A stretch of 53,636 bases of DNA from an uncultured Candidatus Poseidoniales archaeon (GTDB lineage: Archaea; Thermoplasmatota; Poseidoniia; Poseidoniales; Thalassarchaeaceae). The position numbers and the translations under genes are program-made. The notes under the pieces were generated by a model that was not told where the DNA came from, ran no database searches, and was given only the letters and a program-made list of their open reading frames with translations. Within the stretch, counting starts at the first letter, position 1. Each line of letters starts with the position of its first letter. Shown piece by piece: positions 38,562 through 53,250 of this stretch. The stretch lies in assembly GCA_964003245.1 (NCBI GenBank), contig CAXFIU010000004.1:1-53636 (forward strand). Direction: 5' to 3'.

Positions 38562-38579
38562 ATTTAGGTCACCCTAAAT
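38562..38579. promoter_or_regulatory. Palindromic DtxR/IdeR-like operator, copy 1, adjoining the TATA box of the transferrin-like operon
   Basis: ATTTAGG-TCAC-CCTAAAT, followed by ATTATTATAC about 25 bp before ATG 38610. Confidence 0.75.
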
Positions 38580-38609
38580 ATTATTATACGAGTTATTATT
38601 CGAAGTAAT

Positions 38610-39656
38610 ATGGATGATGTGACTTTTGCCAACTGGGCAATAAAAAATAAAGCGTTTTTAATGATCGGACTTGTGGTTTCAGCTGCAGCTCTTTACATGG
38701 TTTTTGATGTAAACTATGAAAAATGTGATGATGAAGAAAACTGTCTTGTTGTTGCTTTTGAATTACAAGATAATTATCTATTCTGGGAGAAAAACCCACA
38801 ACATCTGGCAGATAAACTAAGCACACTAACAGGTATGGATGTAGAAATATATGAAGTTTCAAACTCCGCAGCTGCTATCGAGGCTGTAGACAAAGGTCAC
38901 GCTGACCTTGCATTCTTGGATGGGGCAGCAGCATGGTTGGCATGGGAGGTCTATGGGCTAGATGTTTTAGCTGCAGAAACTAAAGCAGATGGACGTATGT
39001 ACTATAATGCAACAGCATGGGTAAAAGCAGATTCTGATATGGCAGAAGCTTACCTTGATGATGATGATTCCACAGATCCATTCGAACTTATGAGAGGAAA
39101 AACATCATGCCATACTGGTTGGCTAAAAAGTGCTGGAATGCTAATACCGATGGGATACTTGATTGATAATGGATATGCAGAAGTTATTGGAGACCCCAAT
39201 GATATTGAATCTCTTAGAGATACTGTCACAACTTTCTTCTCAGATGATTCAAGCATACCGGAAGGAGGTATTTATTCATCTTACAAAGGAGCATTGAGGT
39301 GTTTATCTGATGGAACAGGAGATGTTGCTCTCGTTAAAGACACAGTTATCGATTCATATTGTACTGGAGAAAATCGATATGATTGGTGTTTAGATGTTGA
39401 AGAATACGTAATGCTACCTGCATTTGCACAAGCACCAAGCCACCCAGCAGTTTATAATCCCGAAACAATGGATGAAGAAACCGTAATTATTGTTCAGGAA
39501 GGGTTAGCGAAACTTAGTGATGATTCAGAAGGAAGAGAGATCCTAAAGGAATTACTGAATACTGATAAAATGGTAGTAACTAATGCACAAGATCACTTAG
39601 GAACTTATGGTGCAGCAGTTTCTAGCGTCCCAGGAATACAGGCATATTTTGAATGA
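38610..39656 (+). CDS. Single-lobe transferrin-like ABC substrate-binding protein (PhnD-fold), probable Fe(III) binder
   Basis: ADLAFLDG, YYNATAWVK, RGKTSCHTGWLKSAGMLIP, YSSYKGALRCL, GDVALVK and QAPSH align in order with transferrin lobe motifs. N-terminal TM anchor. Confidence 0.85.
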   Translation: MDDVTFANWAIKNKAFLMIGLVVSAAALYMVFDVNYEKCDDEENCLVVAFELQDNYLFWEKNPQHLADKLSTLTGMDVEIYEVSNSAAAIEAVDKGHADLAFLDGAAAWLAWEVYGLDVLAAETKADGRMYYNATAWVKADSDMAEAYLDDDDSTDPFELMRGKTSCHTGWLKSAGMLIPMGYLIDNGYAEVIGDPNDIESLRDTVTTFFSDDSSIPEGGIYSSYKGALRCLSDGTGDVALVKDTVIDSYCTGENRYDWCLDVEEYVMLPAFAQAPSHPAVYNPETMDEETVIIVQEGLAKLSDDSEGREILKELLNTDKMVVTNAQDHLGTYGAAVSSVPGIQAYFE

Positions 39657-40120
39657 GGAATAATATGTCAGCATCTGGTGAAATTTTAATTTTGTTTGGT
39701 TCGGAAACTGGTAATGCTGAAGAATTGGCTTTTGAGGCTGGTTCCATGGCAAGTAATTATGAATTACAAGCAACTGTAAAAGGAATGGACGAATTAGAAA
39801 TAGATGAAGTTATTTCTTCGAAACGTGTACTTATATTTTGTAGTACTTGGGGAGATGGTGAACAACCCTATAATGCTCAAGATTTATTTGATGGTGTGTC
39901 TGAATTGGATGACGATAGTTTGAGCGGATTACACTTTGCCGTACTAGCTTTAGGAGATACTGCTTTTGACTTATTTTGTGAATCCGGAAAAGAATGGGAC
40001 AATGTTCTCGAAGAAAAAGGAGGAACTAGGGTCAATGATAGGATAGATTGCGACACTGATTATGAAGACGAGGCAGAAGTCTGGATTCCTGCTACACTCG
40101 AAATAATGAAGAATATTTAA
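39653..40120 (+). CDS. Flavodoxin (short-chain, MioC/CysJ-FMN-domain-like)
   Basis: LFGSETGNAE, CSTWGDGE and LGDTAFDLFC. ATGA overlap with the upstream stop (alternative start 39665). Confidence 0.9.
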   Translation: MRNNMSASGEILILFGSETGNAEELAFEAGSMASNYELQATVKGMDELEIDEVISSKRVLIFCSTWGDGEQPYNAQDLFDGVSELDDDSLSGLHFAVLALGDTAFDLFCESGKEWDNVLEEKGGTRVNDRIDCDTDYEDEAEVWIPATLEIMKNI

Positions 40121-40146
40121 AACAAAACTGTCCTGTCATTACAATT

Positions 40147-40977
40147 ATGGAGGAAGAAAAAATCTCAAGAGAATCGAGACATGGTAGTGCGAATAATTCA
40201 AGAGATAGAGAACAAGATTTGCTTTATGATCCCAATGTTGCAACGTCTTCACATGCAGAACAAGCAATAACTCTTGCATCGTCAATGAGTTCGGGAACTC
40301 TTAGTACAATTTCTGTTAAATCTTCAGGGCATCCTTATGGCTCCTTTGTAACATATATAATTCATAGAAATAATCCGATTTTTCTTATTAGTGATTTAGC
40401 AGAACATACTAAAAATTTAGAATCAAATTCGAAAGCGTCGTTGATGATTAGCGAGATTGGAGAGGGAAATCCATTAGCTCTAGGTAGGCTTACAATTGTT
40501 GGAGAGTGTAAAAAAATGCCTCGGGAAAGTTTTGATTTGATGAAGGAGAAATTTGTTGAAAAACATCCAAGTTCTTCATATTATGTAGATTATACTGATT
40601 TCTCTTTCTTTGAATTAAAGGTAGCATCTATAAGATATATTGGAGGCTTTGGAAGGATGTCATGGATTGATGAAGGAGAATGGATAGATGTCAAGCCGGA
40701 CCCATTGATTAGTTCCGCGCAAGATATTATTACACACATGAATGATGATCACTCAGACGCACTTTTATTGTATTGTCAAAATATGAGCAAAGCTGTTGAT
40801 GCTACCGAAGCAGTGATGACAGCTATCGATAGATATGGTTTCGAAATGTCTGCAACTACAGGTCTTGGTCAAAGACCTATTAGACTAGCATTTACAAATG
40901 AGGTTTCTTCACCTGATGAGGCACGTAAAGAATTAGTTACAATGGTCAAAAAAGCTAGGGAACTTTCTAAAAAATAG
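40147..40977 (+). CDS. HugZ/HutZ-like heme-utilization protein (split-barrel PNPOx-like + DUF2470)
   Basis: GHPYGSFV, ISDLAEHTKNL, RLT, DFSFF, RYIGGFGRMSW, then IITHMNDDH and IDRYGF (DUF2470-like). Confidence 0.85.
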   Translation: MEEEKISRESRHGSANNSRDREQDLLYDPNVATSSHAEQAITLASSMSSGTLSTISVKSSGHPYGSFVTYIIHRNNPIFLISDLAEHTKNLESNSKASLMISEIGEGNPLALGRLTIVGECKKMPRESFDLMKEKFVEKHPSSSYYVDYTDFSFFELKVASIRYIGGFGRMSWIDEGEWIDVKPDPLISSAQDIITHMNDDHSDALLLYCQNMSKAVDATEAVMTAIDRYGFEMSATTGLGQRPIRLAFTNEVSSPDEARKELVTMVKKARELSKK

Positions 40978-41038
40978 TAATTATATTAATAACATAAATT
41001 TAATGTTGTTTTAAAATCCGTCAATACCATATAAGAGA

Positions 41039-41052
41039 TTAGGGTCACCTAA
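41039..41052. promoter_or_regulatory. DtxR-like operator, copy 2, upstream of the ABC ATPase/permease pair
   Basis: TTAGG-GTCA-CCTAA within AAGAGATTAGGGTCACCTAAAATAATTATATAC, closely matching the copy 1 context. Confidence 0.72.
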
Positions 41053-41080
41053 AATAATTATATACTCGGGAGGGGACCTG

Positions 41081-41818
41081 TTGGAAAAAGATTTACAACA
41101 AAATGAACCGATTATCCTTCTCAAAGATATGGTAATTGGCTACAGCAAAGAGAAACCTCTGGTTCAAATTCCAAATTTAAAAATTTACCCTGGTGAGATT
41201 GTAGCAATAGTTGGACCCTCTGGAGTTGGTAAATCAACATTAATGAAGACAATTGCGGGATTAGTAGAACCAATTTCTGGATATGCCCAAGTATGCGGCA
41301 AGATAATTCCCGAATCTCCATTAAGAGGGAAATTAGGGTATATTCCACAAGATCTAGGATTAGTTAAACATGCTAGTGTAATTCATAATGTGATGCTGGG
41401 GGCTAATGCAGGGCATAATAAACCGATAATGCCATTTATTCCAATAATTTTACCCTCATTAAAAGTTAAAGAAGAAGCGACTAAATCGATTATTTCCATG
41501 GGCCTCATAGAAAAGATGTATGAGCCGATAAAAAGACTTTCAGGAGGGCAACAAAGAAGAGTTGCAACAGCGAGAACTTTAGCACAGTCACCGGAATTAA
41601 TTATGGCCGATGAATTCCTCAGTGAATTAGATGAAGAGACAATTGCAATGGTAATAGGTCAAGTGATAGAATATATCAAAATCAGTAATGCGGCTCTTCT
41701 TGTTGTTGAACATGATATAGCGCGTGCCAGAATAATGGCAGATAGATTACTAGTTATTGACGACGGTCGCATTAATCCATTCATAACTGAAATAACAGCA
41801 ATGGAGGTAGAAGTTTGA
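41081..41818 (+). CDS. ABC ATPase, PhnC-like
   Basis: GPSGVGKS, GYIPQDLGLV, LSGGQQRRVATAR, DEFLSELD and VEHD. Confidence 0.88.
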   Translation: MEKDLQQNEPIILLKDMVIGYSKEKPLVQIPNLKIYPGEIVAIVGPSGVGKSTLMKTIAGLVEPISGYAQVCGKIIPESPLRGKLGYIPQDLGLVKHASVIHNVMLGANAGHNKPIMPFIPIILPSLKVKEEATKSIISMGLIEKMYEPIKRLSGGQQRRVATARTLAQSPELIMADEFLSELDEETIAMVIGQVIEYIKISNAALLVVEHDIARARIMADRLLVIDDGRINPFITEITAMEVEV

Positions 41819-42729
41819 AAAAAGATGATGTTGTAGAAGTTTCATTATTTGATAGAAGATATTTCTATCCAGTACTTTTCATTTTTATTTTTCTGTTTAC
41901 CATTATTATTTTCAATGGAATGATTAACGACTGGGGGAGACTATCCAATGGGATAGGAGTTTTCAGGACATTCTTATCAGAGGATGTTTTACCTCCAGAT
42001 TGGACTGTATTAGAACCTATGACATATCCTGTATGTACTGTTGAACCAAAAATACTAGATTTTACTTGTTCAAGGGCATGGATAGGAATGATTGAGACTT
42101 TGAAAATTGCATTTGTTGCTACTGTATTCGGGACGATTTTATCACTTCCTATTTCTCTGTTGGCTGCACGCAACTTGAATACAACAGGGGTTTCATATAT
42201 CGCGAGATGTGTACTGGCATCATTCAGAAGTTTTCCTAGCCTTATTTGGGGTATATTCTTTGTTATATTAGTAGGAATAGGCCCTACTGCTGGAGTTTTG
42301 GCAATGACAGTATATACCGTAGGATATCTAGGTAAATTACAATATGAAGCTATAGAAGGAATGAGTAAATCACCTTTGGAAGCATCTGAAGTAATGGGAC
42401 TTACTAAATTAGAAACTGCATTTCAAGTAGTTCTTCCTGAGTCTGCAAATGACCTAATCTCTCAGATAATTTTCATGTTTGAATATAACTTTAGACATGG
42501 TACAGTAATTGGTCTAGTTGGCGCAGGAGGGATTGGATTATATATCGATACTGCCATTAAATATCTACAATATGATAGAGTTATTGCTTACTTAATTATT
42601 ATATTCATAGTAGTTTTGATAATGGATTTTATTTCAATAAAAATTAGAGCTTTGTTTACAGAAGAAGTAGGATACTCACGGCCTAAATGGCTAGAGGTAT
42701 TTTTTCCTGCTTGGATGATTAAAAGATGA
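41815..42729 (+). CDS. ABC permease, PhnE/PtxC-like
   Basis: ETLKIA, RSFPSLIW, GYLGKLQYEAIE and FEYNFRHGTVIGLVGAGGIG. Confidence 0.88.
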   Translation: MKKDDVVEVSLFDRRYFYPVLFIFIFLFTIIIFNGMINDWGRLSNGIGVFRTFLSEDVLPPDWTVLEPMTYPVCTVEPKILDFTCSRAWIGMIETLKIAFVATVFGTILSLPISLLAARNLNTTGVSYIARCVLASFRSFPSLIWGIFFVILVGIGPTAGVLAMTVYTVGYLGKLQYEAIEGMSKSPLEASEVMGLTKLETAFQVVLPESANDLISQIIFMFEYNFRHGTVIGLVGAGGIGLYIDTAIKYLQYDRVIAYLIIIFIVVLIMDFISIKIRALFTEEVGYSRPKWLEVFFPAWMIKR

Positions 42730-42733
42730 AATG

Positions 42734-43924
42734 TCACCGAATAATCCCTATATTTCCGGTCCAGTAAAATACCAATAATTCATCTGCTAACCCCTGTCCG
42801 AATCCAACAATCATTCCACCGCTAGTGCCTACGAAATGATTGACCCATTCGCCATTGATTTCTTTCAATAACCAAATAGAACCGCTACAAAAATCACCAT
42901 AAAGATATCCATTTTGTAATTTTTCTGGCCCCCAATCCATCCAGAATCCTCCGGTAATGGAACAATTGCCATTTCCATGGCCATAAGTAACAACTGGGTA
43001 AGTCAGATCATCATCACTATGGGCATCGTGGTCATCTTCTTCATAACAATCTCCATCCTCGTCAAAATATTGAAAACCTTCTTTTAATGACCAACCAAGA
43101 TTCATCCTTTCAGAAATAGGTACTAGGTTTATCTCTTCCCAACAATTTTGACCGACATCAGCTATCCAGAGTAGATCATTTTCACCCAAAGAAAATCTCC
43201 AAGGATTTCTCAAACCATAATGAAGAATGAATGGATCACCATTAGAATCTTCAAAAACAGGAGATATCGTATTATTTTGATATGTAAAAAGATTAATTGA
43301 ACCAAGTGAATTAGTTATATTCTGACTATTATTTTGTGGATCATTTGCACCTCCACCATCTCCGATACCCCAAAGATATTGATTATCTCCAATATTTAGA
43401 AGATGCCCGCCATTATGATTTCTGTATGGCTGTTGAATTTCTCTCAGAACTGTAATTGTTGAACTATCCATGATTCCATCATCTCCAATAAGTACAGATG
43501 CAAGAATTAGATCAGATGTTGTTGTACCATCACAATCTTCAGACTCAGTAAATGATAACAAAACCGTTTTAGAATTGTTGTAATTCTCATCAAAAGCTAA
43601 TCCTAATAATCCCTGTTCAATATGGCATGTAGATACAAATGATGTTAAATTGGCCACATCATTCATTGAAGACCCGTCCCATGATTTAACATTCCCGTTT
43701 AGATAGATAATCCATAAATTACCATTTTCAGGATTAATAACTGAGTGATGAGGCGTTTCAGAACCTTCCAAAAATATGCCACATTCAAGATTATATTCTG
43801 GCGAAAGGTCACAATTAAAGTCAGTAGGTTCCGGCCATTCGAAACCTCCCTCAGAGTCATTAAAAATACAGCCAGTAAATGCTGTACAGAGCAATAAAGT
43901 CATCAAAATTGATAAAAATCTCAT
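42734..43924 (-). CDS. PQQ-dependent glucose/sorbosone dehydrogenase-family lipoprotein
   Basis: Lipobox AFTGC, EQGLLGLAF, QPYRNHNGG, GDGG, YGLRNPWRFS, DVGQNCWEEIN, SITGG and YLYGDFCSG. Confidence 0.85.
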   Translation of the reverse strand: MRFLSILMTLLLCTAFTGCIFNDSEGGFEWPEPTDFNCDLSPEYNLECGIFLEGSETPHHSVINPENGNLWIIYLNGNVKSWDGSSMNDVANLTSFVSTCHIEQGLLGLAFDENYNNSKTVLLSFTESEDCDGTTTSDLILASVLIGDDGIMDSSTITVLREIQQPYRNHNGGHLLNIGDNQYLWGIGDGGGANDPQNNSQNITNSLGSINLFTYQNNTISPVFEDSNGDPFILHYGLRNPWRFSLGENDLLWIADVGQNCWEEINLVPISERMNLGWSLKEGFQYFDEDGDCYEEDDHDAHSDDDLTYPVVTYGHGNGNCSITGGFWMDWGPEKLQNGYLYGDFCSGSIWLLKEINGEWVNHFVGTSGGMIVGFGQGLADELLVFYWTGNIGIIR

Positions 43925-43945
43925 AATACCGTTCCTAAATAATTT

Positions 43946-44755
43946 TTACTTACTAGTAATTTCATCTTTGACAATAACTCGTAAAGAATCAGATCCTCCG
44001 GGCCAGAAAACAGCATTATCCATTATTTCCGCGTCCACTGAAAATACCTCAGCAATATTATCTTTAGTTAATACCTCTCTAGGAGTTCCTGATGCAAATA
44101 TTTTACCATTATGAAGAAGTAAAATCCTATCTGCGAAACGAGCTGCTATGTTAATATCATGTATGGCAATTAAAGCAGATTTTTCAGCATCTTTATTGGA
44201 TATAATTTTTCTTAAACTTTTCATTATTTCTAATTGATTTTTAAGATCCAAGTCACTTGTTGGTTCGTCCATTAGTAAAAGTGATGAGTCTTGAGCAATC
44301 GCTTTGGCAATAATTACTCTTTGTCTTTCACCACCAGATAGTTGATCAAATTTTCTGAATGAAAAATCTTCTAGACCAAGTGATCTTAATGTTGAACTAA
44401 CTTTGTCACGATCTTCTTCACTAATTCTCCAGCTAATATGAGGGCGTCTTCCTAGAAGTACAACGTCAAAAACATCCATAGAGAAACTTGTTCTTACTGA
44501 CTGAGGAACATATGAAACTTTTTTAGACAAATCAATTAAAGATAGCCCATTAACATCTTCTTCTAATAGATTAATACTACCTGAGTCTGATTTAAGTATG
44601 CGATTAATGCATTTTAACAATGTAGATTTTCCAGCCCCATTAACTCCTAAAACGGCTACTAATTCATTAGGAGAAATATTTACATTGATATCTCTTAGAA
44701 CATGGTTATTTCCCCAACTGAAATTTAAATCTTTAATCTCAAGGATTTTACTCAA
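43946..44755 (-). CDS. Iron-chelate/cobalamin ABC ATPase (FecE/BtuD-like)
   Basis: GVNGAGKS, YVPQ, LSGGERQRV, DEPTSDLD and HDINIAARFAD. Confidence 0.9.
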   Translation of the reverse strand: MSKILEIKDLNFSWGNNHVLRDINVNISPNELVAVLGVNGAGKSTLLKCINRILKSDSGSINLLEEDVNGLSLIDLSKKVSYVPQSVRTSFSMDVFDVVLLGRRPHISWRISEEDRDKVSSTLRSLGLEDFSFRKFDQLSGGERQRVIIAKAIAQDSSLLLMDEPTSDLDLKNQLEIMKSLRKIISNKDAEKSALIAIHDINIAARFADRILLLHNGKIFASGTPREVLTKDNIAEVFSVDAEIMDNAVFWPGGSDSLRVIVKDEITSK

Positions 44756-45795
44756 CTATTCACCCCCCTATTTTTCAATAACAGATACATGAAAAATGGA
44801 CCTCCGATAATTGAAAGCATTATTCCTACAGGAATAATTATTGGAGCAAACAACGTTCGACCAAGTGTGTCTGCAAAAAGTGTCAATAATGAGCCAAAGA
44901 CTGCTGAACAAGGAATTAATTTACGATAATCATTACCTACAATTAAACGGCTCATGTGAGGTGCGGCCAAACCAACAAATCCGATTAAACCTGTAAATGC
45001 TATAACAATAGATGTCAGAAATGCTGAAAGAATTAATATTCTCTTCCTAGTAGTGCTAGGATCAACCCCCGTAGAAATTGCAAAGTCATCACCTCCTAAA
45101 GACAAGGCATTAAGATCCCATGACCATTTCATAGCAGATGGCATTAAACCTATCAAAGCAACAGATATCCAGAGGGTTTGAATTAAAGTAGGTCTAGATA
45201 AACTACCAAAAGACCAATGTGCTAATTGAGATAATTGTGCATCAGTAGCAAAATATTGCATTGTAGAAACTATTGCACCAGCTATGAAAGTAATAGCAAT
45301 TCCAACTAGAATGTAAGATTCAGCAGAAATAGAACGCATATTGCCTAATTGAATGATTATTCCTACTACAATTAAGGAAAATAGAAATGCATTTGCAACA
45401 ATTGCAATCTCGGAATTCGAAACAATAGAGAAACCGAGTACAATTGCAAATGCTGCTCCAAGAGCAGCACCTGAAGCAACTCCAAGAGTTAAGGGGGAAA
45501 CTAATGGATTTCCTAGGCAACCTTGCATTAAAGCGCCCGCAGTAGCCAATGCTGCGCCGCCAACTATTGCCATCAAGATTCTAGGAAAACGAAGTTCCCA
45601 AATAATAGCGGACTGTAAATCGTTAGAGTTTTCTAATCCGAGAATTATCTTCAATGTAGTTAACATATCTAAATTTGATGATGAACCTGATCCCATTGCA
45701 AAGATTGCTAATAAAAATGTAAGACTAACTAGAAGTAGAATTAATATAATCTGAAACTTTGAGTTTTCAATGTGCTTCTCAGAAATAGAATCCAT
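44752..45795 (-). CDS. FecCD/BtuC-family ABC permease
   Basis: RFPRILMA, GNPLVSPLTLGVASGA, GLIGFVGLAAPH, ADTLGR, PVG and GGPFF. Confidence 0.92.
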   Translation of the reverse strand: MDSISEKHIENSKFQIILILLLVSLTFLLAIFAMGSGSSSNLDMLTTLKIILGLENSNDLQSAIIWELRFPRILMAIVGGAALATAGALMQGCLGNPLVSPLTLGVASGAALGAAFAIVLGFSIVSNSEIAIVANAFLFSLIVVGIIIQLGNMRSISAESYILVGIAITFIAGAIVSTMQYFATDAQLSQLAHWSFGSLSRPTLIQTLWISVALIGLMPSAMKWSWDLNALSLGGDDFAISTGVDPSTTRKRILILSAFLTSIVIAFTGLIGFVGLAAPHMSRLIVGNDYRKLIPCSAVFGSLLTLFADTLGRTLFAPIIIPVGIMLSIIGGPFFMYLLLKNRGVNS

Positions 45796-45799
45796 TAAA

Positions 45800-46897
45800 T
45801 CAACTGCCTAGTGACTTACATACAAACTTTCCTTGCATCTCAACATCATGATATTTTACAAAATAATCAGAAATAATTGATTCTGCATCTAAATCCTCAA
45901 ATAAGTCTGGATGTAATATCTTAGCTAATGTTGGAAGCCCATGAATCATCATTGGTCCAGCAAATTCACCTGACATGATAATCATACGGTTATCTATTAC
46001 AGCGTTAAGACTATCGAAACCCGGCCTAGTTTCAATAAAACTCATATGAGTCCCACACTGATCATCAATATCGTAGGAATTGAAACCGATATCGAATGTA
46101 ATACCATCAAACATAATTACATCAGGATTAGCATCTAAAATTGCTTCCATATCAACATGTGTTGTATGTCCAGGTAAGTCTTTGAAAATGTTATTTCCTC
46201 CTGCTCTTTCTATAATATCCGTCCATTGAGATGTCCCCGTTAGAACAACCGGATCCCTAGTCAAGGAAGCATGATGTTCCATAACAATTTGTGGCCGATG
46301 AGATTCATTAAGTCCGGAAATACGATCTGAAACCTCAGATTCAATATAATCAAATTCTTCGAAAAGAATATCTGCCTCATTTTGTTTTCCAAAAAGTTCG
46401 GCAATAACTGATATCTCATATCTTAGATAGTCATATTTGTAGAAATCTAAGGCAAGTACTTTGATTCCAACTGGTTCTAATTTTTCTCTTATAGCATTGG
46501 TGTCAACCATTCCATTTGTGGCAAAAACAATGTAAACCTCAGGACGGCAATCAAGTAGAGCCTCAAAATCAATTTCCGAGTGGGCTGATTGCTGGATGAT
46601 TGGCGTATCGGCATATTCAGGCCAAATAATTTCGTCATAGAAGTCCCCAGATACACCAGCTACGACTGAAGAGTTTACATCCAACATTCGCATTACAGTA
46701 GCGGCATAAGTATTGGTCATAGCGACACGTTCAGGTGAAGAATCAAAATTATGAATTACTCCATTTGAATCAACCACTTGTATGTTTGAATCAGAAGGTG
46801 TAACAGAATCATCTTGTAGAGAATACTGCCAAACTCCTATTGAACAAAAACATACTAATAATACTTGAAAAATAGCAATATTACGATTATTAAACAT
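45800..46897 (-). CDS. Helical-backbone substrate-binding protein (BtuF/FhuD/HemV-like)
   Basis: VVDSNG, PERV, DFEALLDCRPEV, AGGNNIF, VDMEAILDANPDVI, AVIDNR and LAKILHPDLF. ATG 46897 preferred over TTG 46939. Confidence 0.85.
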   Translation of the reverse strand: MFNNRNIAIFQVLLVCFCSIGVWQYSLQDDSVTPSDSNIQVVDSNGVIHNFDSSPERVAMTNTYAATVMRMLDVNSSVVAGVSGDFYDEIIWPEYADTPIIQQSAHSEIDFEALLDCRPEVYIVFATNGMVDTNAIREKLEPVGIKVLALDFYKYDYLRYEISVIAELFGKQNEADILFEEFDYIESEVSDRISGLNESHRPQIVMEHHASLTRDPVVLTGTSQWTDIIERAGGNNIFKDLPGHTTHVDMEAILDANPDVIMFDGITFDIGFNSYDIDDQCGTHMSFIETRPGFDSLNAVIDNRMIIMSGEFAGPMMIHGLPTLAKILHPDLFEDLDAESIISDYFVKYHDVEMQGKFVCKSLGS

Positions 46898-46901
46898 AAA
46901 A

Positions 46902-49241
46902 TCAATCCTCTCGATTCCTATAAGAATAAATTGTAACAAGTGATAATAACGAAACCATGAATATCAAAATATTACTCATTGTAAAATAATCTGATTCTGA
47001 TTCTTCAATTATATTAACGAAAATGGAATCTGAGAAATCTGAAACCTTTCCATTAGATAGTCCGACCTGTATTCTAATTCGATTTTGACCAATGTTTAAT
47101 TCATCTAAAGAAGTGAAATTTTCAGAACCATTATACATCTCAATAACTACTCCATCAGAATCTTCAACTATTAGTGAGTACCATGCTGCATCCATAGTAG
47201 AACTCCATGATACGAAAACATCTGTCCCTTCATTCTGTTGAGAGGTGAACAAATTAAAGACTAATGGCGGTTCAACAATATGAAATACATCTAAACTAAT
47301 AATTTCGCCGACGACCGTATGCCCTGAAGGCATAATTGCATTGATTTGATATTGATAGGTATTATCAATCTGATTTTGAATTAAATAAGAATTCTCATCC
47401 CCTTGATAAATAAGTACATCGTTTTCAAATAATTGGTATGAATCTGCCCCCTGGAAATTTGCCCAATCAATAAAATATTCATTTGAAGATATATCTACTT
47501 CTTCAGTCAAGAATTGGGGAGTCATTGGAACCTCAAAAGACTGTAATTCATAAATAACTTTTTCAGAATGAGAACCGGGTAACTGATCGATGATTTTTAC
47601 CCAATTACGCACTGATTCATTGTACCATAATTCCCAAGAAACAATACCATCTATCATATCTGTAATTACTATATGTTTTGTTAAGAAAGTTCCAGCCGCT
47701 GTAGTAATTAGTACATCTTGATTAATTTCAACTGTATTTGTAGTATCATCATATCCATTTGGATGGCCTGGAACTCCAATGATATTTGTTCTATTAAAAT
47801 GTAAATTAATATCATCATCTGATTCTAACAAACTTACCGATTGACCAGAATTATCTGTAAAATTCCATCCCAAAATTCCTTCTTGAAAATAAGATGAGGA
47901 TGATGGGGAATCAACCCAATAAGTATGAACGGTTAAGAGATTTTCACTATCAATCCATCGATATGATTGTTCGCCCTCTTCATGATATTCATTATTATAT
48001 CTAGTCAGAAATGTGGTTCTTTCACGACCAAATGAGTCAATACTAATTTCTGAACCTATGGCAGTAAAAGTAACATTGTGCATCCCATATGATGACTCTG
48101 GAGTATAAAAGACGCCATAATCCCATGACATACCTGCTGACCAAAGAGAATCTACATTATTATCAGGAATGACTATTATCATCAAAGATGCAGGATTAAG
48201 ATTGGTACCATTATTATTAGTAGCTTCAATGGTAAATTCAAAGGTTCCAACTTCAGAAGGAGTGAAGTCAAAAGTGGTTGAACTACCTCTGTAAACTAAC
48301 TCACCGTTAGAATATAGTGAATAAAAATCAGTATAATTTCCACCCTCCCAATCAATACTTAGAGAGGATATGGGAATAACTTGTAGTTGTGTTACAAAAG
48401 AAACATTCTCGGGAAATTCTAGATTTACAGTTGATGAAAGGTTCATCCATCCTTCTCCACCAGAAATTACAGATGTAATCGGATCTAGGATACTAATACC
48501 TTCTAACGTTGCAATAAAATTCTGCGTAGAACCAATAGGTAGATTTTGAAGCAAATAGAAACCATCTGAGTTAGTTACGGCATTTTTTTCTCCGTTACTA
48601 ACTACAACTCCTTTCATTGGTAGTCCTTCTTCATCTACAATAAATCCATACTTACTATTCATACCTTTATTCAAGTCAAAATCATTCGGAGAAGATGCTG
48701 AAAGTTTGAAATGCACATATTGTGTTGAAGAAATATCATCTTCATGAATTCCTCGGATTGTAAAATACTGCCCTATATCTAGAGTTCCGAATTCTGCCCT
48801 GCCGTCTTGAATATCTTGGATTTCGTTTAATTCAACTAGTTCAACATGAGATGATGAAATATCAGGAATATGAACTCCCTGTTCATCGAACATCTCTACA
48901 GTAATCCAATTCTCACCCACATGCCAATCTAATTGCATATCTGAATTAAATACCATTTTTCTGTAAGCCACAGTATGACCGTTATTCATGAAATAAGCTC
49001 TGACTGTATGTTCACCAGGAGTTATTCCTGAAAAAACATAAGAACCATTTTCAGACCAAGTAGATGTCATTGAATCTACCTTAATAGAAGTAGAGTTAGC
49101 GAAATTTCCATCTTCAGCAAATACATTCCCCGATAGTGTGAAAAGTTCCTGATCTGATGAATCATCTGCAGAAACTGCTATTGAAGAAAATATAGAAGAT
49201 ACAAACACTAGTGTTAGTATCAAAGCATTGAGTCTCTTCAT
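46902..49241 (-). CDS. Large membrane-anchored surface protein with beta-sandwich (carboxypeptidase-regulatory-like/FN3-like) domains
   Basis: Signal peptide, NGSYVFSGITPGEH, TNSDGFYLLQNL, FN3-like W...Y...Y repeats and C-terminal TM. Ends 4 bp before the binding-protein gene. Confidence 0.7.
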   Translation of the reverse strand: MKRLNALILTLVFVSSIFSSIAVSADDSSDQELFTLSGNVFAEDGNFANSTSIKVDSMTSTWSENGSYVFSGITPGEHTVRAYFMNNGHTVAYRKMVFNSDMQLDWHVGENWITVEMFDEQGVHIPDISSSHVELVELNEIQDIQDGRAEFGTLDIGQYFTIRGIHEDDISSTQYVHFKLSASSPNDFDLNKGMNSKYGFIVDEEGLPMKGVVVSNGEKNAVTNSDGFYLLQNLPIGSTQNFIATLEGISILDPITSVISGGEGWMNLSSTVNLEFPENVSFVTQLQVIPISSLSIDWEGGNYTDFYSLYSNGELVYRGSSTTFDFTPSEVGTFEFTIEATNNNGTNLNPASLMIIVIPDNNVDSLWSAGMSWDYGVFYTPESSYGMHNVTFTAIGSEISIDSFGRERTTFLTRYNNEYHEEGEQSYRWIDSENLLTVHTYWVDSPSSSSYFQEGILGWNFTDNSGQSVSLLESDDDINLHFNRTNIIGVPGHPNGYDDTTNTVEINQDVLITTAAGTFLTKHIVITDMIDGIVSWELWYNESVRNWVKIIDQLPGSHSEKVIYELQSFEVPMTPQFLTEEVDISSNEYFIDWANFQGADSYQLFENDVLIYQGDENSYLIQNQIDNTYQYQINAIMPSGHTVVGEIISLDVFHIVEPPLVFNLFTSQQNEGTDVFVSWSSTMDAAWYSLIVEDSDGVVIEMYNGSENFTSLDELNIGQNRIRIQVGLSNGKVSDFSDSIFVNIIEESESDYFTMSNILIFMVSLLSLVTIYSYRNRED

Positions 49242-49289
49242 AAACTTTCGAACCCTCTCTCCCTAATTATATTTCGTTTATGAGTGGGT

Positions 49290-49389
49290 TAACGAGAAGC
49301 GCTTAAATTGAATGTGAGTTCTATTTATAACTATGATGAAGCCTTTGATTTTTCTGTTGTGAGCCAGATTAATCCAGCGCTTCTCGTTA
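49290..49389. repeat. 14-bp perfect inverted repeat enclosing 72 bp
   Basis: TAACGAGAAGCGCT (49290-49303) and AGCGCTTCTCGTTA (49376-49389). Confidence 0.8.
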
Positions 49390-49404
49390 CCGTTCGAGTG
49401 GTCA

Positions 49405-49434
49405 TTCTATGTGGGCATTTCTGCCCACATAGAA
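49405..49434 (-). terminator. 13-bp stem with GAAA tetraloop just downstream of the FEA1-like gene (terminator or mRNA-stabilising hairpin)
   Basis: Minus strand TTCTATGTGGGCA-GAAA-TGCCCACATAGAA, 12 nt after the stop at 49447. Confidence 0.65.
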
Positions 49435-49446
49435 ATCGTCAATTAT

Positions 49447-51096
49447 TTATTGGAGTGTTCCAATATCTTCAGCTGTAATTCCTAGCATATCCCAAGCAGG
49501 TTGGAGATGTGCACGAACAGCAGCCTGGTAGTCAGTTCCTGCTACTGGTACGTTATTGAAATCATAGATTCCATTAATTCCAGTTGTTCCGAAACCATCG
49601 AAGTGGGTAAATGCACCACACTCTGCTTCAGCCATATCTGCATCAGTTGCATGAGATACCATATTGTAGCATCCTGTAAACATTGTAGCACCATAATTCT
49701 CATACCAACCATAAGATTCGCATGTAGTCTGATCTACTGCTGTATCCCATGAGTGAGATACACTGTTGTAGCAACCATCTGCGCCAGGTGTTGTAACATA
49801 ATCTTCTATCCACATGTAAGATGTACATGTTGCATTATCATCGCTAGATGTTTCATGAGATTGCATGTTGTAGCATCCTGTGAAAGTAGTTGAACCCCAT
49901 GATGCATTATCATAGTAATCCCAGGACTCACAGATTGATTGATTCCATGAAGCATTCATACCATGAGACACAGAATTGTAGCAACCTGTGTAAGTTTGCT
50001 CTCCGTAATTCTCCAAGAACATGTATGCTTCACACGATGCTTGATCAGAATCTGAGGAAGTTGCATGTATATTCATATTGTAGCAAATATCTGAACCGTC
50101 GCCCATATCATAATCTGTCATGTACATGTACCCTGCACATTCATCAGCTGCTGCTGCACTAACAGTCATTGTAACGCTGTTGTAACAATCATCACCAGGT
50201 GATGGGTTTGCTTCAGCAATATATTTCTCGATTACTCTCCAGAAAGAATATCCCTCTGCTTGATGTGTTTGAGCTTTTTCTACAGTATCGTCAGTATTCA
50301 TCTTGTGAGCATAACGAATTGTTGCTTGTGAGTAAATTATTACTAATTGCTTTACTACCTCATCTCTTGCAGCTGTTGCTCCAACGAGATCTTCTGCTTG
50401 TAGTGCAGCTAGACCATCATTCATTGCTTGGAGGATCGCTGCATTCGCTATAGCAGTACCATCTGCATTTGCAGTAGCATAGTTACCTGCTCTCTTATCT
50501 CCAGTAGCGTATGGAGAGCATGATGCATACTCATCGAGACCGTGGTAAAATGCCCATCCTTCATCCCATGCGTGCTGTGCATCATCAGTACCAAAGTTTC
50601 CGGCTTCAGCCTTGACAATTGCAGCGTTTAATTCATGGATTGCATATGCAACCATTATTTGATTTTGAACTCCTTTCTCAACTGCTTGCTCACGAACACT
50701 ATCTGAAGCACCCTCAAACATTCCAGTGCCATCTAATGCGGACATCAAGTAGTCATCTAGAGGGGATTCGGTACCATAGAATGTATCTAATCCGTGTTTC
50801 TTACCTGTTGCATCAGCAAATCCTTGTAATGTTCTGAATGATCCATCACTCTTTTCTGCATGCTTACCATCCATGTAAATTTCTTTTACACCATCCCAAT
50901 CATGAGCCTCTGCAAGATCTTTGATATCGCAAACGTCTTCTACTAGCATTCTGTGATTATCCACATTTGAAGCATATTCATATCCGCCATCTGCTTCGTC
51001 AAAGTTACTCTCATCGTCGTCCGATAAACAACCTGCAAAAGCCGCAGCTAACATACTCAGCGTCATCATTATAGCAATTATTTTCTTATTTTTCAT
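49447..51096 (-). CDS. FEA1/IrpA-like (low-iron-inducible) lipoprotein with inserted Cys-rich repeats
   Basis: Lipobox AFAGC, YEYASNVDNH, IYMDGKH, RTLQGF, YAIHEL, HAWDEGWAFYHG, KRAGNYAT, YSQATIRYA and QAEGYSFWRVI. Confidence 0.75.
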   Translation of the reverse strand: MKNKKIIAIMMTLSMLAAAFAGCLSDDDESNFDEADGGYEYASNVDNHRMLVEDVCDIKDLAEAHDWDGVKEIYMDGKHAEKSDGSFRTLQGFADATGKKHGLDTFYGTESPLDDYLMSALDGTGMFEGASDSVREQAVEKGVQNQIMVAYAIHELNAAIVKAEAGNFGTDDAQHAWDEGWAFYHGLDEYASCSPYATGDKRAGNYATANADGTAIANAAILQAMNDGLAALQAEDLVGATAARDEVVKQLVIIYSQATIRYAHKMNTDDTVEKAQTHQAEGYSFWRVIEKYIAEANPSPGDDCYNSVTMTVSAAAADECAGYMYMTDYDMGDGSDICYNMNIHATSSDSDQASCEAYMFLENYGEQTYTGCYNSVSHGMNASWNQSICESWDYYDNASWGSTTFTGCYNMQSHETSSDDNATCTSYMWIEDYVTTPGADGCYNSVSHSWDTAVDQTTCESYGWYENYGATMFTGCYNMVSHATDADMAEAECGAFTHFDGFGTTGINGIYDFNNVPVAGTDYQAAVRAHLQPAWDMLGITAEDIGTLQ

Positions 51097-51113
51097 ATAT
51101 CCATCTCCGTATT

Positions 51114-51129
51114 TTTAGGTCTCCCTAAA
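51114..51129. promoter_or_regulatory. DtxR-like operator, copy 3, upstream of the FEA1-like gene (degenerate copy 4 at 51159-51172)
   Basis: TTTAGG-TCTC-CCTAAA lies 17 bp from the ATG. TTAGG-TTAT-TCAAA at 51159-51172 reads on the minus strand ...CCTAATATTGATATAC, like copies 1 and 2. Confidence 0.72.
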
Positions 51130-51243
51130 CTTTCCGACTAATGTTCAGTATATCAATATTAGGTTATTCAAAATACTAAAAAAAAGTGCGATTAAGAGAT
51201 ATATCAGCGATATACTGATGAGATTGGACTCGTTCGGAATATC

Positions 51244-53250
51244 GTGAGTTATTTTAGTCGAAGCAAGATTCTGGCATCAATCTGTGTAATCCTTATGTTT
51301 TCAATGATTGTTCCTTTGGAAAATAAAGAAACAATGCTTAATGAAAAAATGGTAGAAAGATATCAATTAGGAGGTGGTGGTAGTCTTGAGCAAAGATGTA
51401 GTTCAATCACTTTCGAAGCCATTCTACCCTATACTCATGCGCATTTCGATATTGTAGTTAATGAAGATTGGAATTCGGCTGAAGTTGAGGCTAGAGCATG
51501 GATAAATGGGACAAGTGTCGATTTATTAAGGGAAAAACTTGATTCTTATTTAGAAGAATTATACCCTAGTGGAGGAGATGGTTGGATCTCAACAGATGAA
51601 AAATCAGCAGTTGAAGCGGTAGCTTCTGAATGTGTTGAATATGCTATGACTAGGATTGGTCTGAGAGAATCAACCCCTCATAGAGGAGGAGTTGGACTTG
51701 ATTGGAAAAACGCCACCTGGCAGAATGATGGCGTTATAATTGAAGAATGGAATCTAGTTCCATCCAACCATGCCGATATAAGAGACTGTACCGCAATTGG
51801 TTCTAGCAATGATTGTGTAGAAGTGCCCGTATTCCCTAACTCTGAGAGAGATTGCAATACCCTTATTGAAACTTCAGAGAATGTCGACGAGTGTAGGCTA
51901 GAACTATGGATGAATGCCACAATGGTAATTCCTAGTATTGATGAGGGAGAAGAATTTACTTTAGCATTTAATGCTTCGAATATGACTAATGCGGTTTTGG
52001 ATTTTACATTACCGAGTAACCCTGATCTAAGAGTAGACATGTGGGAAGAATGTGAAGGAAGAGATGTTGAATTTGAACCATCAACTCACGAAGATGCCCC
52101 ACTGAGAGGTGCTTGTATCGGAGATGGATCATCAACCTATATTTTCGAAAACATTGAAGATGAAAGTGTCAAATTCACTCTAATTCCACATAGAAGTATA
52201 GATTTTTGGCCTAGTGGTGAAGATATTTTTGTAGATTTCACCACGGCACCTATCCCAATCAACAACCCTCCTTCGTGGACAGAAAATGCTCCATTGAATG
52301 AAAGTTGGTTGCCTTCATTGGAGAGTGGAGAAAATATTTGGGCTGATTGGAATAGTATTTCATCATGGTTTGATGATGAGAAGCCCATCTCACAATTAGA
52401 AATAAATTGCAATTCAGAACCTTCGGCAAATATCTATCAGTTATCTGATAAGTCTTTTTCTGGAATAATTAATTATGGTCAGGACATACAAGTAGAATGT
52501 GAGGCCGTTGATGACTTGGGGCAAAGTTCAGGAATTAGGATTTGGAACTTAGGAGTTCCTATTTTTCTAACGACATCATCAGAATCTTTAGTCAGTCCAC
52601 ATCCAGTAGATATACAATTTAGTGAAAATTGGCCTGAACTAACATTAGAATATGCATTCACTCAATCTCAAAATATTAATTCTGCAAATATTGAATCTAT
52701 GACTATTTCTTCTAATCAAACAATATTAATTAATTCCAATGGGATGATTCCAGGGTTAGTGGATTTATGGATAGGAATAAATGGTAACAATTACATATAT
52801 CCTACAGAAAGAATTTTTCAACTAGGTATAACTAAAGAAAGTTCGCCACCTATGATTAGCGTTACAGAATATGGCTGGGAAATAGATATCTGGCAAGCTC
52901 AAGGACAATTTAGTGACCCAGATGGAGAAGATGTTGACTTTTCTCTATCTATAGATGGATTATCTGCAGGTAGTATTTCAGTATCTGGAAATTCATGGAG
53001 TACACCAATGATAAATTTTGGATTATGGGACGAAGGTGAACATGAAGTAAAAATTATTGGTTGCGATATATCGGCCAAATGTAATGAAGTAATTATTATG
53101 GTAAATAATAGTCATTTATTTGAAGACGCAACATCTCTTCCTTTAATTCCAGATGATGATTCAGGAACTGGATTATTACCGGGTTTCAGTATGTTCTTGA
53201 CTATCTTCGCATTAACTATCGGTCTCATATACTCAACCCGTCGCGATTAG
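51244..53250 (+). CDS. Secreted Cys/Trp-rich surface protein with PGF-CTERM-like archaeosortase signal
   Basis: Signal peptide, NNPPSW and SDPDGEDV cadherin/Ig-like motifs, C-terminus LLPGF + TM + RRD. Confidence 0.72.
   Translation: MSYFSRSKILASICVILMFSMIVPLENKETMLNEKMVERYQLGGGGSLEQRCSSITFEAILPYTHAHFDIVVNEDWNSAEVEARAWINGTSVDLLREKLDSYLEELYPSGGDGWISTDEKSAVEAVASECVEYAMTRIGLRESTPHRGGVGLDWKNATWQNDGVIIEEWNLVPSNHADIRDCTAIGSSNDCVEVPVFPNSERDCNTLIETSENVDECRLELWMNATMVIPSIDEGEEFTLAFNASNMTNAVLDFTLPSNPDLRVDMWEECEGRDVEFEPSTHEDAPLRGACIGDGSSTYIFENIEDESVKFTLIPHRSIDFWPSGEDIFVDFTTAPIPINNPPSWTENAPLNESWLPSLESGENIWADWNSISSWFDDEKPISQLEINCNSEPSANIYQLSDKSFSGIINYGQDIQVECEAVDDLGQSSGIRIWNLGVPIFLTTSSESLVSPHPVDIQFSENWPELTLEYAFTQSQNINSANIESMTISSNQTILINSNGMIPGLVDLWIGINGNNYIYPTERIFQLGITKESSPPMISVTEYGWEIDIWQAQGQFSDPDGEDVDFSLSIDGLSAGSISVSGNSWSTPMINFGLWDEGEHEVKIIGCDISAKCNEVIIMVNNSHLFEDATSLPLIPDDDSGTGLLPGFSMFLTIFALTIGLIYSTRRD

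Follow-up and report, generated by a model that had tools for sequence, protein, structure and literature searches.

The closest described counterparts of the element reported here are the operators of two metal-dependent regulators of the DtxR family. In Saccharopolyspora erythraea, each monomer of IdeR reads one CCTAA and one dimer is bound per half-site, and it has been proposed that the 14-bp TTAGGNNNNCCTAA replace the 19-bp TTAGGTTAGSCTAACCTAA as the IdeR/DtxR consensus (Marcos-Torres et al., PMC8464063). In Haloferax volcanii, chromatin immunoprecipitation sequencing of TroR, also a DtxR-family protein, yielded the motif TTTAGGC-NNN-CCTAAA; TroR uses tandem sites ~30 bp apart, either of which suffices for repression, and under iron-replete conditions it represses iron uptake genes and activates dpsA (Martinez Pastor et al., PMC10783522). 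The present analysis concerns a 16-bp palindrome, TTTAGG-N4-CCTAAA, with the core 14-mer TTAGG-N4-CCTAA, which recurs in a 53,636-nt stretch of DNA (the window) from an uncultured Candidatus Poseidoniales archaeon; 'this genome' denotes the whole assembly, labelled G000. An earlier inspection of the letters, the sequence-only reading, had placed four intergenic copies at 38562-38579 (ATTTAGGTCACCCTAAAT), 41039-41052 (TTAGGGTCACCTAA), 51114-51129 (TTTAGGTCTCCCTAAA) and 51159-51172 (TTAGGTTATTCAAA), here copies 1 to 4. All four were recovered at these positions, and none lies inside an open reading frame (ORF) of at least 80 aa. We put at roughly three in four the probability that the palindrome serves as the operator of an iron regulon and that a DtxR/IdeR-family repressor responding to Fe(II) binds it, one dimer per 16-bp site; the candidate repressor is the protein P0001 of this genome.

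The likeness to DtxR/IdeR operators, archaeal ones included, had been pointed out from the letters and holds: the core equals the published 14-bp TTAGGNNNNCCTAA and the TroR motif. Copies 1-3 match the one-dimer IdeR site exactly, with identical arms and 4-bp spacing, and in both cases the sites lie in iron-gene promoters and the regulator has a Met/Cys/Glu/His primary site. The arrangement differs. Whereas the usual actinobacterial operator is a 19-bp box for two overlapping dimers, only the one-dimer form occurs here, extended by one T/A on each side, and paired sites are separate, 34-44 bp apart, flanking an archaeal TATA box. The classical 19-bp box has the same outer pentamers, TTAGG and CCTAA, at an outer spacing of 9 rather than 4; that form was not found, as the window sites lack inner repeats and TTAGG-N9-CCTAA occurs only twice in the genome. 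With TroR the element shares the same 16-bp palindrome and the tandem copies. TroR sites, in contrast, lie ~100 nt upstream of start codons, against 17-32 nt here, and the TroR regulon includes siderophore synthesis and dpsA, whereas the regulon described below comprises a transferrin-like substrate-binding protein (SBP), Fea1, flavodoxin, FTR1, ferredoxin and suf genes. For the three Haloferax paralogs, the paper describes an SH3-like extension for SirR only, whereas P0001 has a C-terminal region resembling a third domain. The element represents the one-dimer form of a familiar kind of operator; neither the regulator family nor the site is new. No description of a DtxR-type regulon in Poseidoniales was found in the literature searched, although the survey of archaeal DtxR regulons by Leyn and Rodionov (2015) may cover related lineages.

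Chance is excluded as the origin of the repeated palindrome. Expected numbers of exact copies were taken from a first-order Markov model, and the window was additionally compared with 100 dinucleotide shuffles of itself. It holds three exact 14-mers, all within 12.6 kb, against an expectation of 0.057 (P ~3e-5), and five matches at no more than one mismatch, a number reached by none of the 100 shuffles. Across the assembly (1.53 Mb in 114 contigs, 38% G+C, 92.5% complete), the exact 14-mer occurs six times against 1.6 expected and the exact 16-mer five times against 0.17 (P ~1e-6), while the reversed 16-mer has no match and every other arm spacing from N0 to N12 yields between zero and two. 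A position weight matrix (PWM) trained solely on sites from related genomes scores the four intergenic exact 16-mers of this genome at 23-27 bits, an exact site on contig C52 at 17.4, copy 2 at 16.3 and the next intergenic match at 12.9. Copies 1 and 2 had been said to share about 35 bp of context; we find an ungapped block of ~33 columns with 26 identities by hand count. Copy 4 on its own is not significant, with 71 sites in the genome lying within two mismatches of the 16-mer. It sits 44 bp from copy 3, and in 10 genomes of the same genus a second perfect copy stands 43-44 bp away; copy 4 was accepted as a decayed operator because of this matching placement. Two-mismatch sites before gyrB, a dehydroquinase gene and the gene for ribosomal protein S17 look like chance and were set aside.

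The sites coincide with genes of iron metabolism in this genome and in its relatives, and the refuting condition of a motif spread without regard to metal genes clearly does not hold. Here, four of the five exact 16-mers precede metal genes, as do five of the six sites with at most one mismatch to the 16-mer if iron and other metal genes are taken together. Besides those of the window, exact 16-mers lie 53 nt before a 4Fe-4S ferredoxin gene (C2:44514) and 30 nt before a gene for a Peptidase_M28-ZIP transporter fusion (C81:2460). Within the window, copy 1 stands before an operon for the transferrin-like SBP, a flavodoxin and a HugZ-like protein, copy 2 before an ATP-binding cassette (ABC) ATPase-permease pair, and copies 3 and 4 before the gene for a FEA1-related lipoprotein (Fea1). 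Control of ferredoxin and flavodoxin genes by one regulator is a classic iron-sparing switch. A weak site (12.9 bits) precedes the sufC-sufB-sufD operon of this genome, and the same suf gene pair carries an exact operator in two relatives (L031, L038).

The comparison set comprised 40 related Poseidoniales genomes, drawn from three families. Of these, 33 hold one or more exact 16-mers, with a total of ~75 by hand sum against 20 for the reversed pattern of the same 16-mer. We inspected 52 loci that together account for 70 of these ~75 sites. Without exception the sites at these 52 loci are intergenic, and the genes that they face fall into seven iron-related classes: the transferrin-like SBP (29 loci), Fea1 (9), a 4Fe-4S ferredoxin (4), a Peptidase_M28(-ZIP) protein (3), a sufC-like ABC ATPase (3), the FTR1 iron permease (2) and ferrochelatase (2). 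The arm sequence is constant across the three families and the centre is variable.

Alignment of promoters by start codon revealed a recurring layout, in which a first operator (O1) is followed at once by an ...ATATA... box, often by a second operator (O2) 18-27 nt later, and then by a short leader with GGAG and the ATG. This layout recurs in SBP and Fea1 promoters of all three families, with the operators of a pair 43-44 bp apart in 10 same-genus genomes, 33-34 bp apart in seven genomes of one family (f3) and, in a single further genome, 53 bp apart. In the window, copies 1, 2 and 4 had been described as lying directly upstream of a TATA-like ...TATAC element; this is borne out, copy 4 being followed by TATTGATATAC when read on the minus strand. 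The SBP start codon lies 31 nt after the end of copy 1, as would suit a leaderless mRNA. Of 13 single-operator promoters, 12 have their start codon 29-32 nt beyond the operator, and copy 2, with 27 nt, is the exception. A fixed gap of this size would result from a TATA element directly after the operator combined with a leaderless transcript; the TATA and start-site positions are themselves inferred. The operators abut the TATA-like box or cover the expected transcription start, which fits repression. A TCGGAAG-like heptamer stands directly 5' of O2 in Fea1 and SBP promoters of the genus (for example at 51130-51137, minus strand) and, in similar form, before the ferredoxin operator.

This genome encodes two DtxR-family proteins, P0001 and P0002. 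A DtxR homolog, on which the sequence-only reading depended, is therefore present, and P0001 carries an Fe-type ligand set: in an alignment with DtxR (3glx), its Met, Cys, Glu and His fall on Met10, Cys102, Glu105 and His106, the metal ligands of the Fe-type site. Its C-terminal region can be aligned with the third domain of a 226-aa relative. Orthologs of P0001 occur in all 41 genomes; among 30 that were aligned, Cys, Glu and His are kept in 30 and Met in 25, and the recognition-helix region is nearly constant. In family f3 (14 genomes), no DtxR-family gene other than the P0001 ortholog exceeds the Pfam cut-off, and the exact operator is present in 12 of these genomes. Because it is the sole DtxR gene there, P0001 is the only candidate within the family. 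No match to Fur (PF01475) was obtained in this 92.5%-complete genome, while control genomes matched.

In the mechanism that we propose, which follows from where the operators lie and from how this family is known to act, each TTTAGG-N4-CCTAAA would bind one repressor dimer, probably of P0001. O1 would abut the upstream side of the TATA-like box, where TFB contacts the B recognition element (BRE), and O2, 34-44 bp further on, would lie over the expected transcription start. The Fe(II)-loaded dimer on O1, and on O2 where present, would then block TBP and TFB at the BRE/TATA and the polymerase at the start. Under iron scarcity the repressor would leave, and transcription of the SBP-flavodoxin-HugZ-like operon, the ABC pair and Fea1 would rise, perhaps together with that of the FecCD cluster behind Fea1. 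The binding protein, its metal dependence and the direction of regulation are what we infer here; that a DtxR-family protein would be the binder at all rests on the identity of the motif with the two published cases.

Several observations weigh against this account. P0001 was singled out by elimination within one family of genomes, together with the likeness of motifs. The ancillary metal site of P0001 is replaced, its His79, Glu83 and His98 positions holding Glu, Lys and Asp, and the Met of the primary site is Glu in all five f3 orthologs aligned. No NCBIfam model reaches its cut-off for P0001, the best being MntR with 75.9 bits against 350. Seven of the 40 relatives have no exact 16-mer. One exact 16-mer of this genome, at C52:4267-4282, falls within a predicted ORF of 131 aa, with a 2OG-Fe(II) oxygenase gene 284 bp downstream; this site is the only one outside a clear intergenic region, stands among small same-strand ORFs and could be a chance site or mark a mis-called ORF. 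A crude genome-wide survey (410 upstream regions from crude ORF calls) gave no sharp TATA position, its sole peak being Shine-Dalgarno-like at -12/-11, and so it is the regulated promoters alone that carry the BRE/TATA reading. Finally, operators also precede iron-consuming genes (ferredoxin, sufCBD and ferrochelatase), which simple repression does not explain.

This last point bears on the alternative that survives best, namely that the site serves an activator or has a dual purpose, the iron-loaded regulator turning on ferredoxin, suf and hemH genes while turning off uptake. The operator stands at the ferredoxin promoters of four relatives' loci and of this genome, at three sufC-like and at two ferrochelatase promoters. 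In the ferredoxin promoters no ...ATATA... box follows the operator; activation is therefore possible for the ferredoxin, suf and ferrochelatase genes, and TroR sets a precedent at dpsA (PMC10783522). However, for ferredoxin, suf and hemH the position of the operator relative to the promoter cannot be fixed without start sites, and such a role would supplement the repressor account rather than replace it. For these iron-consuming genes, repression and activation are both live possibilities; the activating or dual role is possible, though we hold it at somewhat less than even odds.

An unlikely alternative is that a genuine, iron-related operator is recognised by a transcription factor of a family other than DtxR, its likeness to DtxR sites being convergent. 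The link between P0001 and the site is drawn from sequence, the DNA-reading helix of P0001 differs from that of DtxR (Ala and Glu at the Pro39 and Gln43 positions), and its gene adjoins no operator-bearing promoter, the nearest being the ferredoxin site ~4 kb away. Yet core sequence and spacing are identical to those of two independently determined DtxR-family sites, DtxR-family proteins with an Fe-type site occur throughout the order, and no Fur was found in this genome.

That P0002 rather than P0001 binds the motif is highly improbable. P0002 does match DtxR-family models better than P0001 and has a clear FeoA/SH3-like third domain. However, it has Asp and Glu at the DtxR Met10 and Cys102 positions, the Mn-type pattern, its gene lies within a ZnuA/ABC-3/ABC ATPase operon and is preceded by TTAGC-N4-GCTAA-type sites of its own, and a second DtxR gene above the cut-off is missing from all 14 f3 genomes, although 12 of these have the exact operator, and from many same-genus genomes.

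The variant sites before P0002 (G000:C12:36071-36111, just upstream of the gene) are two palindromes, one of them perfect (TTTAGCCGAGGCTAAA), that flank a TATA-like CTTTATA; the genome has only two such 14-mers. The change from G to C in the arm may separate the operators of P0001 and P0002. At the end of the same contig (C12:38560-38794), a ZnuA-like gene contains a long His/Asp-rich repeat with GATGAC/CATGGT periodicity, of the sort typical of metal-binding loops, and the contig breaks inside it.

A further alternative, an RNA or DNA hairpin or a special core-promoter element in place of a protein operator, can draw on arms that could pair over 6 bp around a 4-nt loop, on an O2 that would be transcribed and on the joint change of both arms in one relative (G018; TTAGG/CCTAA to TCAGG/CCTGA), but is barely tenable given that O1, upstream of the TATA-like box, would not be transcribed, that the arm sequence is fixed over three families while the centre varies, that decayed partner sites carry uncompensated arm changes (such as ...CCGAAA, TTTCGG... 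and TTTATG...) and that the element is confined to iron genes.

The relative with the changed arms belongs to a group of three (G018-G020) with 0, 1 and 0 canonical sites against 6, 4 and 9 for the reversed control. Its SBP promoter (L174, G018:C3) contains two TTCAGG-N4-CCTGAA operators 59 bp apart, the second with one arm mismatch, and among the DtxR orthologs that of G018 diverges most in its recognition helix (VSDQSASEMLARL). The remaining TCAGG-N4-CCTGA matches fall within long ORFs, and neither FTR1 nor Fea1 was found in G018 and G020 with the queries used. Co-variation of operator and regulator, with a shifted specificity in G018, was dropped as evidence as it rests on one promoter.

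The genes behind copies 1 and 2 resemble a phosphonate transporter (PhnCDE), and phosphonate transport is listed among the core traits of marine group II (MGII) archaea in a published survey (Tully 2019, PMC6336850). The resemblance is uneven. The permease passes the NCBI PhnE model (229 bits against a cut-off of 216.7), which is the one point against a role in iron, the SBP matches Pfam Phosphonate-bd and the best model of the ATPase is PhnC. Nevertheless, the ATPase falls short of the PhnC cut-off (135.6 against 266.1), the SBP lies far below that of PhnD (35 against 261) and is transferrin-like, and it is encoded in a flavodoxin operon behind an iron-type operator. The best solved relatives of the SBP are all transferrins, with ovotransferrin at E = 1.7e-25. 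Asp104, Tyr132 and Tyr225 align residue by residue to the iron-ligand positions of ovotransferrin, Thr169 falls on the anion-site Thr and Lys173 on the anion-site Arg, while His278 (...AQAPSH...) was placed on the ligand His from serotransferrin alignment ranges. None of the six residues varies among the 21 operator-linked homologs compared, which are 42-97% identical to the SBP of the window. PhnJ and PhnI of C-P lyase were not found in this 92.5%-complete genome, other phosphonatase routes not having been searched.

The sequence-only reading had argued that these 'phn' genes serve iron and not phosphorus. With a transferrin-like SBP whose four iron-ligand positions are conserved in each of the 21 homologs, and with neither PhnJ nor PhnI found, a role in iron is indeed what they most probably have, and the results favour re-labelling of the MGII 'phosphonate transport' genes. 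We incline, without strong commitment, to the wider view that the MGII 'phosphonate ABC transporter' is a transferrin-type system for ferric-iron uptake, co-regulated with the FEA1/phytotransferrin-like lipoprotein, FTR1, ferredoxin and flavodoxin by a single IdeR-like repressor through one-dimer sites around the archaeal TATA box. In eight loci (L011, L018, L024, L027, L032, L034, L152 and L155) the operator-linked SBP exceeds 480 aa and contains two separate Phosphonate-bd/Transferrin stretches; the ORFs extend beyond the loci compared, and these proteins may be two-lobed like animal transferrins.

Coordinates of the features discussed are collected in the table.

Table. Operators, promoter elements and genes of the putative iron regulon. 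Positions are those of the window unless a contig is named.
Feature	Coordinates	Strand	Remarks
Operator copy 1, TTTAGGTCACCCTAAA	38563..38578	.	Sole operator of the SBP-flavodoxin-HugZ-like operon; BRE position; PWM 27.3, best of the genome
TATA-like box TATTATTATAC	38579..38590	+	Directly after copy 1
Transferrin-like SBP	38610..39656	+	Pfam Transferrin and Phosphonate-bd
Flavodoxin	39653..40120	+	SBP operon
CREG/DUF2470 protein, HugZ/HutZ-like	40147..40977	+	SBP operon; HugZ/HutZ likeness below NCBIfam cut-off
Operator copy 2, ATTAGGGTCACCTAAA	41038..41053	.	Before ABC ATPase-permease pair; one mismatch to 16-mer, exact 14-mer
TATA-like box ATAATTATATAC	41054..41066	+	Directly after copy 2
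ABC ATPase, PhnC-like	41081..41818	+	PhnC likeness below cut-off
ABC permease	41815..42729	+	Passes NCBIfam PhnE model
Five genes behind Fea1	42734..49241	-	779-aa CarboxypepD_reg protein, Peripla_BP_2, FecCD, ABC ATPase, GSDH
FEA1-related lipoprotein	49447..51096	-	Pfam Fea1; NCBIfam NF038033, 395.6 bits against cut-off 250
Operator copy 3, TTTAGGTCTCCCTAAA	51114..51129	.	O2 of Fea1 promoter; 17 nt before ATG, over expected transcription start
TATA-like box GATATAC	51148..51154	-	Between copies 4 and 3
Degenerate operator copy 4	51158..51173	.	Decayed O1 of Fea1 promoter, 44 bp from copy 3
Divergent 668-aa protein	51244..53250	+	Hypothetical family confined to Thermoplasmatota; Atlas record begins at residue 18 (ATG 51295)
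P0001, 215-aa DtxR-family protein	G000:C2:48520-49167		Pfam PF01325 and PF02742
P0002, second DtxR paralog	C12:35415-36065		Inside ZnuA/ABC-3/ABC ATPase operon

Assembled RNA contigs from four seawater metatranscriptomes (two studies) cover the SBP, flavodoxin, HugZ-like and Fea1 genes; as assemblies they do not allow start, strand or level to be read. The five genes downstream of Fea1 are possibly co-transcribed from its promoter: RNA contigs from three runs in two studies span 49135-49608, from Fea1 into the gene behind it, which is not proof of a single transcript. Between the two genes, 15 nt after the Fea1 stop codon, lies a perfect 11-bp stem with a 4-nt loop (49407-49432, minus strand) with no T-run behind it. 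RNA contigs cross this stem-loop, which could be an element of mRNA stability or processing between Fea1 and the downstream genes. One RNA contig ends at 51126, inside copy 3, and was not counted as evidence.

On the other side of the operator pair, the divergently encoded 668-aa protein has no Pfam or NCBIfam match. Its homologs are the divergent neighbour of the pair in the same genus (L024, L027, L033, L161, L168, L171), and it may be a member of the regulon and an unrecognised component of iron acquisition.

For the Poseidoniales, the gain lies in annotation and ecology and in a handle on the iron physiology of an abundant uncultured group; no new principle is involved. The operator offers a sequence-only marker of iron-responsive genes in metagenomes and metatranscriptomes, and there are grounds to re-label a transporter that genome surveys have counted as phosphonate uptake. 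The promoters suggest a compact DtxR-type mechanism on archaeal promoters, in which one dimer would occupy the BRE/TATA and another the start site. If the reading is true, these very abundant archaea of the surface ocean would be wired for iron scarcity, and single-lobe prokaryotic proteins would already carry the complete iron site of the transferrins.

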